Of a DNA stretch of 16,014 nucleotides, positions 1-3,253 are shown piece after piece. Each line of letters opens with the position of its first letter. Within the stretch, counting starts at the first letter, position 1. The translations under genes and the position numbers were made by a program. Origin of the DNA: a virus (Duplodnaviria; Heunggongvirae; Uroviricota; Caudoviricetes); IMG/VR virus record IMGVR_UViG_2660238499_000006, positions 1 through 16,014 of that record; one strand, given 5' to 3'. Under the pieces are notes generated by a model. The model was not told the DNA's origin, did not search any database, and worked only from the letters and a program-made list of their open reading frames with translations.

Positions 1-297
1 GGGTGCTTAAGTTACAGGATCCTGGATTCGGGACCAGACGGTACTCAGACGACGCTTACCGCTGTCATTAAACATCACACCATTGAGGCTCTGAAGCTGT
101 TCCCGAACATTGGACAGCATTGCCGACTGTGATTTTACGGAAATAAATTCATAACCCTGATTCCGCAGGTCCTGAATCAGTTCACGTTCCAGGTCCGATT
201 CGCTCTGGTAGCTGTCGCTTGTTTGCTCAGCTTTGATGTACTTATCAAGGACGATAAAGTTATTGGATTCAGCAATGGTGTGTGTTTGATGAGTCAT
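1..297 (-). CDS. hsdR: Type I restriction endonuclease R subunit (HsdR), N-terminal ~97 codons only; gene runs off the window start
   Basis: Minus-strand ORF with ATG at 295-297 (MTHQTHTIAESNNFIVLDKYIKAEQ...), open to the window edge. Lies directly downstream of hsdM-hsdS in the order typical of plasmid-borne type IC systems. N-terminus resembles EcoR124-family HsdR from memory. Confidence 0.7.
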
Positions 298-418
298 AGC
301 GCATCCTTTGTGCCGCCTGGCAAGAGCCGGAAGGGCGTTAAGAGTGACTTCCGGCGCGTAAAAAATAGTCTATATACTGACCGGGTGTTAAGGTGGCCCG
401 ATCGGTAGCAATGGTCAA

Positions 419-1570
419 TTAATTACTGACAGTTTCAGGTTTCGGGAAACTGAACAGTAAATCACGGTAGTATTCGTATTGTTTCTGGCGCAACTCGATT
501 TCACGCGGGAGGCCTTCGGTGATGGAGTTTGTCAGGGTGTCGAATTTATCGAGAAGAGATACGATTCGTTTTTGTTCGTCCAGTGATGGAAGTGGAATTA
601 TTAATTTAGCCAAGTCAATTTTATTTACAGCAGGTACTCCACCTTCTTTTTTTAAACTCAATAAAATCCTATTTCTTGATTGAAGAGTATAGAAAAGGAA
701 TTTGTTAATTAGGATTTCATTATTTAATGATTTTATTTTATAGCACAAGGGACCTAACCAGAATGGCGTTTTTTGATATCCTACAAAACCAATACCACCC
801 TGCCCCCGAGAAGGTGTAGTTACAGTATCCCCATCGCAGTTGCTCATCGTTGTGTATCCCGATCTACTTGTTCCGGCGTTGATATAATCAAATGTTGCTG
901 CTTTATCAAGTATCTCAGATGGTTTTTGCCCTGTGTTTATCTCGGTGATTTCCCCCAAAGTCTTCCACTTAACCTCACCCTCTTTAAAACTTAACAACTG
1001 GTCGCGATAGTAGTTGTACTGTTTTTTACGCATGTTAAGCTCAGCGGTAAGCTCAGCGGTAAGCTCAGCGGTAAGTGCAGTAAACTTATCCAGAATCCGA
1101 ACGATTTCAGACTGGATGGCAAGGGATTTTTCCGGATTATCCGGGCAGGGGATTGGGAATTCAAGTTTTTCAATTACTGACTTTGAGAGACGCGGAATAC
1201 TGGCACGGCGTACTTGTCCTGAAATTTTATTCTTTTGCGTCAACAAAAAATGAAACAAAAACCTGTCATTTATGTATTCTGGTGTGATTGCGAAATGAAC
1301 ATCGTCGGCAGCCCAAAATTCATTTTCGCTATAACCAATTTCACCGGCTGCACCCGCACAGATAATGAACGAAGATTGAGCTGCGACATTATACTCATGA
1401 TAGTAACCGAGTGGTGTCATGCTGTTTTGGTAAACCGCATATTTACCTCTGGTTTCTAACTGAGATTTTACGAGCCGCCTTCCGCGCTGAAAATTTACAA
1501 CATCTCCCAATGATTTCCACTCAACCTCAACCCCATCCAGCAATTTTTCCAGATAACTCAACTCGCTCAT
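419..1570 (-). CDS. hsdS: Type I R-M specificity subunit (HsdS), two target-recognition domains separated by a central (TAEL)n repeat
   Basis: 383-aa minus ORF whose ATG overlaps the hsdM stop (ATGA at 1567-1570), indicating translational coupling. Central region ...[32 protein letters not shown]... and C-terminal ...[14 protein letters not shown] are the conserved HsdS repeats flanking variable TRDs. Confidence 0.9.
1037..1072 (-). repeat. Three perfect tandem copies of a 12-bp unit (plus strand aagctcagcggt; minus strand accgctgagctt = T-A-E-L) inside hsdS, followed by a degenerate fourth unit
   Basis: Directly visible at 1037-1048, 1049-1060 and 1061-1072. In-frame, encoding [13 protein letters not shown] between the two TRDs. 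Confidence 0.95.
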
Positions 1571-3129
1571 TTCTGCACCTCGCAGCCTTCAATTTCAGCC
1601 ACAATCGCATCAATATCTTTACGCAACTGGTCGATTTTGCTAACCGTAGTTTTAAGCTCTGCATTTAGCTCAGCAATATTGATAATTTCGCGGTTATCTT
1701 TCGCTTCTACATAGCAGCTCACCGACAGGTTATAGTCATTAGCGACAACGGTCTCAAACGCGACAGATTTCGCCAGATGAGCAACATCTTCCTTGCTGGC
1801 AAATACCTGCATAATCTGTTCGATATGGGCATCGGTCAGGATATTGTTGTTGGTCTCTTTTTTGAATAGTTCGCTGGCATCAATAAACTGAACTTTGGTA
1901 TCCGTTTTATGTTTAGACAGCACCAGAATATTGACGGCAATAGTGGTGCCAAAGAACAGATTCGGTGCCAGTGAAATCACGGTTTCGACATAGTTATTAT
2001 CAACCAGATACTGACGGATTTTCTGCTCCGCGCCGCCACGGTAAAAAATACCCGGGAAGCAGACAATCGCAGCACGACCTTTGGCCGAAAGATAGTTCAG
2101 CGCATGTAATACAAACGCAAAGTCAGCTTTGGATTTGGGGGCCAGAACGCCAGCCGGGGCAAAACGCTCATCGTTAATCAGCGTCGGGTCATCGCTGCCA
2201 ATCCATTTCACCGAATACGGCGGGTTAGAAACGATGGCATCAAACGGTTTTTCATCTCTGAAGTGCGGTTCAGTCAGCGTATTGCCCAGCTTGATATCAA
2301 ACTTGTCGTAGTTGATGTTGTGCAAAAACATGTTCATACGTGCCAGGTTATAGGTCGTATGGTTGATTTCTTGTCCGAAAAAGCCTTCTTCAATGATATG
2401 GTTATCAAACTGCTTTTTAGCCTGCAACAACAGCGAACCGGAACCTGCGGCCGGGTCGTAGATTTTGTTAACGTGGGTCTGGCCATGCATTGCCAGTTGT
2501 GCAATCAGCTTAGAGACGTGCTGCGGTGTAAAGAACTCACCGCCTGACTTACCGGCATTTGCCGCATAGTTAGAAATCAGGAACTCATAGGCATCACCGA
2601 ACAGGTCAATCTGATGTTCGTTGAAGTCACCAAGTTTTAACCCTTCAACCCCTTTCAGAACCGCAGCCAGGCGGGCATTTTTATCTTTAACGGTGTTACC
2701 CAGGCGGTTACTGGTGGTATCGAAATCAGCAAACAAACCTTTGATGTCAGCTTCTGAAGGGTAACCGTAAGCAGAACTTTCGATAGCAACGAAGATGCTG
2801 TTTAAATCTGCATTCAGTCTGTCATTGGTATTTGCTTTCGCAGCTACGTTGCAGAAAAGCTGACTGGGGTAGATGAAGTAACCTTTGGTTTTGATGGCAT
2901 CGTCTTTAATGTCATCAGTAATTACGCTGTCATCCAGTTTCGCATAACAGATACTGTCATCACCGGCTTCAATATAGCTGGAAAAATTTTCGCTGATAAA
3001 ACGGTAGAAAAGTGCGCCCAGAACGTATTGCTTAAAATCCCATCCATCGACCGAACCCCTGACATCGTTAGCAATTTGCCAGATTTGACGATGAAGCTCT
3101 GCACGTTGTTGAATACTTGTCATTTTCAT
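1567..3129 (-). CDS. hsdM: Type I R-M N6-adenine DNA methyltransferase subunit (HsdM)
   Basis: 520-aa minus ORF with the catalytic NPPY motif (..[12 protein letters not shown]..) and an AdoMet-binding-like [11 protein letters not shown] motif. Stop overlaps the hsdS start. Confidence 0.93.
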
Positions 3130-3253
3130 CCACTTATTTCAGGCTTATGTAATTGGCGGTGATTCTACAGCAACTTGGATGCTTTAGCAGTTCGGACATT
3201 AGGCAACGAATGACCTAATTAGAGCTTTTTGGAAAAGCGGTATTGTCGGTGCG

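Follow-up and report, generated by a model that had tools for sequence, protein, structure and literature searches.

The Type I restriction-modification genes at the left end of the P1-like sequence studied here (the window, 16,014 bp) raise the question of which family they belong to and whether they still encode an enzyme that restricts as well as modifies DNA. The original prediction had read them as a complete Type IC (EcoR124-like) hsdM-hsdS-hsdR operon. Listing and translating the open reading frames of 1–3250 revealed three consecutive minus-strand ORFs of 520, 383 and 96 aa, the last at 7–297. The first, hsdM (1567–3129, minus strand), is intact, and its 520-aa product matches Pfam N6_Mtase (E = 1e-120) and HsdM_N as well as the NCBIfam model TIGR00497 hsdM (645 bits). 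Both motif I and motif IV (NPPY) are retained. The protein is identical to EcoR124 HsdM (7bst_D) at 517 of 520 residues (99.4%), with a score of 1160 bits, far above the 331 bits of the second-best HsdM match in the PDB. The second gene, hsdS (419–1570, minus strand), overlaps hsdM by 4 nt (ATGA) and is likewise intact, encoding a 383-aa protein with two Methylase_S domains according to Pfam; a search of NCBIfam matched no HsdS model.

Comparison of this HsdS with that of EcoR124 (7bst_A), the only Type IC HsdS of solved structure, showed that the N-terminal, central and C-terminal conserved regions are near-identical and that the two target recognition domains (TRD1 and TRD2) are both different. 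From the N-terminus, the conserved region is followed by TRD1 (approximately 1145–1516), the central conserved region, TRD2 (approximately 581–958) and the C-terminal conserved region. The gene order hsdM-hsdS-hsdR on a single strand (minus), with hsdR starting at 297, is that of Type IC. The closeness of HsdM to EcoR124 HsdM, taken as a sequence proxy for cross-hybridisation and complementation within a family, points to the same assignment, as do the family-specific conserved regions of HsdS with a TAEL repeat in the central one. Together with the HsdR residues described below, these features strongly support the EcoR124-like assignment originally proposed, and hsdM and hsdS belong to Type IC (EcoR124 family).

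Completeness, the other half of that proposal, failed at the third gene. What is present of hsdR is a 5′ fragment at 60–297 (minus strand), codons 1–79 of 1038, in which 74 of the 79 residues (94%) are identical to EcoR124 HsdR (PDB 2w00/4beb). The hsdR frame then passes 17 codons into an insertion sequence and stops at 7–9, yielding a 96-aa fusion peptide (7–297, minus strand) that matches Pfam HSDR_N weakly. A full-length HsdR of about 1038 aa comprises nuclease, motor and C-terminal domains, and of this the window holds residues 1–79 only. Bases 1–59 (minus strand) are the terminal inverted repeat at the tnpA-proximal end of an IS66-family element, reading GTAAGCGTCGTCTGAGTACC... from base 59 and running off the contig. 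A terminal inverted repeat starting with GTAAGCG is typical of the IS66 family, and the minus strand from base 59, GTAAGCGTCGTCTGAG, starts in this way. Numerous unrelated plasmids have a match of 97–100% to the same 59 bases next to the tnpB/transposase genes of IS66-family elements. Bases 1–59 correspond exactly to the tnpA-proximal end (8001–8059) of an element in one matching copy, L002 (5624–8059, 2436 bp), both ends of which begin with GTAAGCGT and which has the 8-bp duplication CACTGCGA on either side. Both L002 and a further matching copy, L003, have the IS66-family genes (tnpA-tnpB-tnpC) along with an 8-bp duplication.

The switch from hsdR to the insertion sequence lies at 59/60. Whether in plasmids, in phages or in complete E. 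coli genomes, DNA matches to hsd loci all start at base 60, and among those in plasmids and complete E. coli genomes none reaches to the left of it. At the junction the window reads ...AATGACAGCG followed by GTAAGCGTCGTC (GTAAGCGTCG after the switch), the changeover falling exactly at the IS terminus. At the same point a sibling sequence, L012, reads ...AATGACAGCG followed by AGTGGCGG and continues into a full hsdR, whose 1038-aa product aligns over residues 1–1038 with EcoR124 HsdR. Between 60 and 11570 the window and L012 show no mismatch in 11,511 bp, hsdS included. When the gene index was searched for exact copies of the 96-aa fusion product, one contig alone came up, namely the window itself (LLYL01000052.1, GCA_001484475.1). 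Since the sibling with intact hsdR is identical over this length and the fusion ORF occurs on one contig only, the IS66-family insertion after hsdR codon 79 appears to be a recent event confined to this assembly; its expected 8-bp target duplication would be TGACAGCG.

Such a junction could also arise as an assembly artefact, a chimeric end in a short-read draft, with hsdR intact in the strain itself. In favour of this, the window comprises a whole draft contig, both ends of which lie in repeated mobile elements (IS66 family and TnAs3), and the insertion sequence is visible over 59 bp only before the contig ends. However, it is precisely with the outermost base of its inverted repeat (GTAAGCG...) that the insertion sequence takes over from hsdR, which is expected of transposition and rare for a random chimera, and we regard an artefact as very unlikely. 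The view that the window encodes a complete, functional Type IC system that restricts and modifies can draw on the intact hsdM and hsdS and on the full 1038-aa hsdR of identical sibling plasmids. Against it, the hsdR match gives way at base 60 to the inverted repeat of an IS66-family element, a stop ends the frame after 96 codons, and the catalytic domains of HsdR all lie beyond residue 79. That view is thus already refuted for this contig, barring an assembly error at the junction, and we give it next to no credence.

With hsdR interrupted after codon 79 and hsdM and hsdS intact, the element is predicted to methylate and not to restrict. We consider it very probable that the window carries a Type IC hsdM-hsdS-hsdR cassette, situated in the variable pap-hot region of P1-like plasmids, in which hsdR has been inactivated by an IS66-family insertion, giving a restriction-minus, modification-plus phenotype. 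Mechanistically, the insertion would strip HsdR of its nuclease and motor domains, and the products of hsdM and hsdS, which lie upstream of the insertion and are untouched by it, should still assemble the M2S1 methyltransferase. This enzyme would introduce m6A into each half-site of a bipartite target. Plasmid and host DNA marked in this way would be protected from sibling plasmids carrying the intact enzyme, and incoming DNA would be left uncut. In practical terms the finding concerns the accuracy of annotation: the appropriate entry for the locus is hsdM+ hsdS+ hsdR::IS66, with modification but no restriction predicted, and any conclusion about host-range barriers drawn from this element must allow for the predicted restriction-minus state. 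A literature search on the methylomes of P1-like hsdS alleles found nothing relevant.

Restriction might nevertheless be kept in trans if the host had another Type IC hsdR, either chromosomal or on a different plasmid, whose product joined the M2S1 core. Subunit exchange within a family is a classical defining property of the Type I families (PMC12707154). Cassettes of Type IC are also frequent in E. coli, in chromosomes as well as plasmids: matches to window 1–700 were found in 1632 of 5426 complete E. coli genomes, a count that includes matches to the IS end, and 1390 of the matching places are chromosomal. One chromosomal Type IC copy, L004, lies in a P4-like hotspot and carries the same cassette at 96.5% identity. 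Weighing against a second copy, genomes with any match to window 1–700 mostly have one such place (median 1), and we judge complementation of this kind to be improbable.

We then turn to the position of the cassette in the phage-plasmid. As originally described, the hsd genes lie upstream of hot and humD: hsdM, on the minus strand, ends the cassette before the plus-strand genes hot (3481–3732), a homologue of the DNA polymerase III theta subunit (Pfam DNA_pol3_theta, E = 2e-31) that forms the right-hand P1 boundary of the cassette, and humD (3831–4220), which also has a Pfam match. Directly upstream of hot, in place of P1 upfM-upfO, is a plus-strand ORF of 74 aa (3254–3478) that belongs to phrog_7757 (E = 3e-54), a family with no assigned function, and matched nothing in Pfam or NCBIfam. 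Homology to P1 begins at 3490. P1 itself has pmgT, pmgU, pmgV, upfM, upfN and upfO between pap and hot, and in the relatives of the window this stretch reads pap-hsdR-hsdS-hsdM-hot. From this alignment of gene orders, the hsd cassette is placed between pap and hot, where it replaces P1 pmgT-upfO.

The original prediction had further presented a Type I system as an unusual swap or addition in a P1-like backbone, a claim that did not survive comparison with other P1-like genomes, many of which proved to share the cassette replacing pmgT-upfO. The hsdM-hot junction is common to at least 62 PLSDB plasmids (coverage of at least 80%), and the whole window is covered to at least 80% by 88 PLSDB plasmids; the cassette also occurs in the phages vB_EcoM-673R5 and phi456. 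The segment from pmgT to humD has been described as a highly variable region (region 8) of P1-like plasmids (PMC9603915). The P1-like plasmid pSvP1 has been reported to carry a Type I system in place of the pmg genes, with pR15_MCR-1 cited as well (PMC6906374), and pR15_MCR-1 (MK256965) was among the plasmid matches to the window. An EcoR124-family Type I system at this variable locus of P1-like plasmids is already known and common, and the hsd cassette at pap-hot accordingly offers little new biology. Links between P1 and Type IC loci are also recorded in the P1 RefSeq annotation, which notes an identity of 96–98% between the pap-pmgT intergenic sequence and the DNA lying downstream of the hsd loci of EcoDXXI and R124/3, and one of 98% between phd-doc and the DNA upstream of the EcoDXXI hsd genes.

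The remainder of the window bears out the P1-like backbone that had been proposed. It follows the gene order of P1 through hot, humD, phd-doc, pdcB, lpa, pacA/B, ant, c1, loxP-cre and ref, as expected of a Punavirus backbone, with a perfect loxP at 12734–12767 and DNA identity to P1, P7, SJ46 and RCS47 of 94–97% from base 3490 on. At the far end ref is truncated, its match covering profile positions 1–143 of 186, and a Tn3-family inverted repeat (GGGGTTTGAGGGCCAATG...) starts at approximately 15254, the contig ending inside TnAs3. In one complete relative, NZ_CP122909.1, the interval between ref and a 6.8-kb methylase gene, located at the position that P1 darB would occupy, contains a SIR2-family gene and hypothetical genes, and res/mod is absent from this interval. 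The SIR2-family gene thus takes the place in which res/mod would lie, and this gene content of NZ_CP122909.1 fits the known variability of the res/mod region.

We also examined the central conserved region of HsdS, which has TAEL three times in tandem; the underlying DNA is a perfect tandem repeat with a 12-bp unit and 3.3 copies (1036–1075, minus strand; TRF score 80, 100% matches; 12 residues encoded). In EcoR124I, two repeats give an N6 spacer, and in EcoR124II, EcoDXXI and EcoPrrI, four extra residues give N7 (PMC12707154). By analogy with these enzymes, the repeat at 1036–1075 is the putative determinant of spacer length in the window HsdS. Since three TAEL repeats are present, as in EcoR124II, EcoDXXI and EcoPrrI, the target of this HsdS is predicted to be bipartite with an N7 spacer. 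A two-repeat hsdS allele (P0001, 379 aa), differing by exactly 12 bp, occurs on P1-like contigs, and when one copy carrying it, L007, was aligned with the window over 11.5 kb, a 12-bp gap was the sole difference. The natural co-occurrence of two- and three-repeat alleles is a small, neat case of specificity change via repeat number.

An exact-protein look-up found the 383-aa HsdS in at least 24 public contigs, accompanied at every place listed by an HsdR of 1038 aa and by the P1 genes that adjoin it in the window. The idea that the three-repeat hsdS is a private mutation tied to the hsdR knockout was rejected on this ground, the exact HsdS being found in these contigs beside intact hsdR. A broader proposal would join the two features of the locus: specificity would switch in wild phage-plasmids by repeat slippage of the EcoR124I/EcoR124II type, and hsdR::IS66 would have been selected, as an orphan epigenetic methyltransferase or as an escape from self-restriction, and would not be random decay. 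We hold this proposal to be unlikely; if it were true, the two-repeat (predicted N6) and three-repeat (predicted N7) alleles on P1-like plasmids otherwise identical over the 11.5 kb compared would represent repeat slippage in nature.

Among characterised systems, the window most closely resembles the Type IC prototype EcoR124I/EcoR124II of plasmids R124 and R124/3, with which it shares the gene order, the HsdM sequence, the HsdS conserved regions and the N-terminal HsdR residues, and, with EcoR124II, the three TAEL copies. The P1 annotation adds that R124/3 also has P1-like sequence downstream of hsdR. The window differs from both enzymes in the insertional truncation of hsdR and in its two TRDs, and because both TRDs differ, its target bases are not expected to be GAA/RTCG. 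Other P1-like Type IC cassettes (for instance those of L012, NZ_CP122909.1, pR15_MCR-1, vB_EcoM-673R5 and pSvP1) share the locus and the backbone with the window, whereas their hsdR is full-length, and many of them combine different TRDs or have two copies of TAEL. EcoDXXI (pDXX1) and EcoPrrI have the same four extra residues in the central region, predicting N7; the window has no prrC gene between hsdS and hsdR. P1 phd-doc and pap-pmgT sequences lie on either side of the EcoDXXI locus, an arrangement similar to that of a further matching copy, L001, in which hsdM abuts phd. With EcoP1I, the Type III system encoded by P1 res/mod, the window has in common that a restriction-modification system is carried on a P1-type plasmid prophage; the enzyme type, the genes and the locus, which in P1 lies beyond ref/mat, are all different.

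Finally, candidate promoters were sought in the hsd region. An extended -10 had been proposed upstream of hsdM, and the sequence TGTAGAAT is indeed present at 3162–3169 (minus strand, read from 3169 to 3162), approximately 33 nt upstream of the hsdM ATG, as a candidate promoter for hsdM and hsdS. It contains the -10-like hexamer TAGAAT, with the TG directly abutting the hexamer, unlike the canonical TGnTATAAT. At a spacing of 17 nt the candidate -35 is CTGCTA (3/6). A consensus promoter scan of 1–3900 did not report this site; it returned 8 sites where 7.0 ± 2.4 are expected by chance, which is no excess. From the same consensus scan, a candidate hsdR promoter, TTAACA-18-TATTTT, was placed at 391–362 in the hsdS-hsdR intergenic segment (298–418, minus strand). 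Among the plasmid-borne copies examined TAGAAT does not vary, which is uninformative. In the diverged chromosomal copy L004, TAAAAT is found at the same offset, lending modest support to a -10 element at 3162–3169, and TAGAAT is a plausible -10 hexamer of hsdM, though not a canonical extended -10.

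Comparison of the TAEL repeat tract (1036-1075 in the window) between loci L005-L009 and loci L012-L014 revealed two forms of HsdS. The form with two TAEL repeats (379 aa), carrying the window's pair of target recognition domains (TRDs), was found in 9 contigs, and the three-repeat form (383 aa), with an identical TRD pair, in at least 24. At least one two-repeat contig otherwise matches the window: in L007, a 12-bp gap is the sole difference, with 0 mismatches across 11.5 kb. Two- and three-repeat hsdS alleles sharing one TRD pair are a naturally occurring counterpart to the switch in specificity between EcoR124I and EcoR124II.

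A Type IC cassette was also observed in a chromosomal island (L004, Logan ERR7450710_110, 5900-21140). It shares 96.5% DNA identity with the window's cassette, and its HsdS is a two-repeat protein identical to P0001, the 379-aa allele. AbiEii, a reverse transcriptase, Psu, Ogr/Delta and a P4-type primase are among its neighbours, and the island is a P4-like satellite defence hotspot.

Directly 3' of a 74-aa ORF (3254-3478, plus strand) lies hot. This ORF, matched to phrog_7757 (E=3e-54) and yielding no match in Pfam or NCBIfam searches, holds the place occupied by upfM-upfO in P1. The hot-humD gap is just 98 bp (3733-3830), and lxr, which P1 has between these genes, is absent. A perfect LexA-box-like palindrome, TACTGTATGGATAAACAGTA, is located at 3793-3812, with humD immediately downstream.

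Further along, cre (13186-14217) lies downstream of a perfectly matching 34-bp loxP (12734-12767). The ref gene is truncated by a Tn3-family (TnAs3-like) element (~15254 to 16014) beginning with the terminal inverted repeat GGGGTTTGAGGGCCAATG..., and the Ref profile match is confined to positions 1-143 of 186. The contig end falls within the element's transposase gene (15287-15961, minus strand). L011 (NZ_CP122909.1), a complete P1-like relative in which the hsd cassette is present, carries a SIR2-family gene (7529-9531) beyond ref, where P1 has mat-res-mod.
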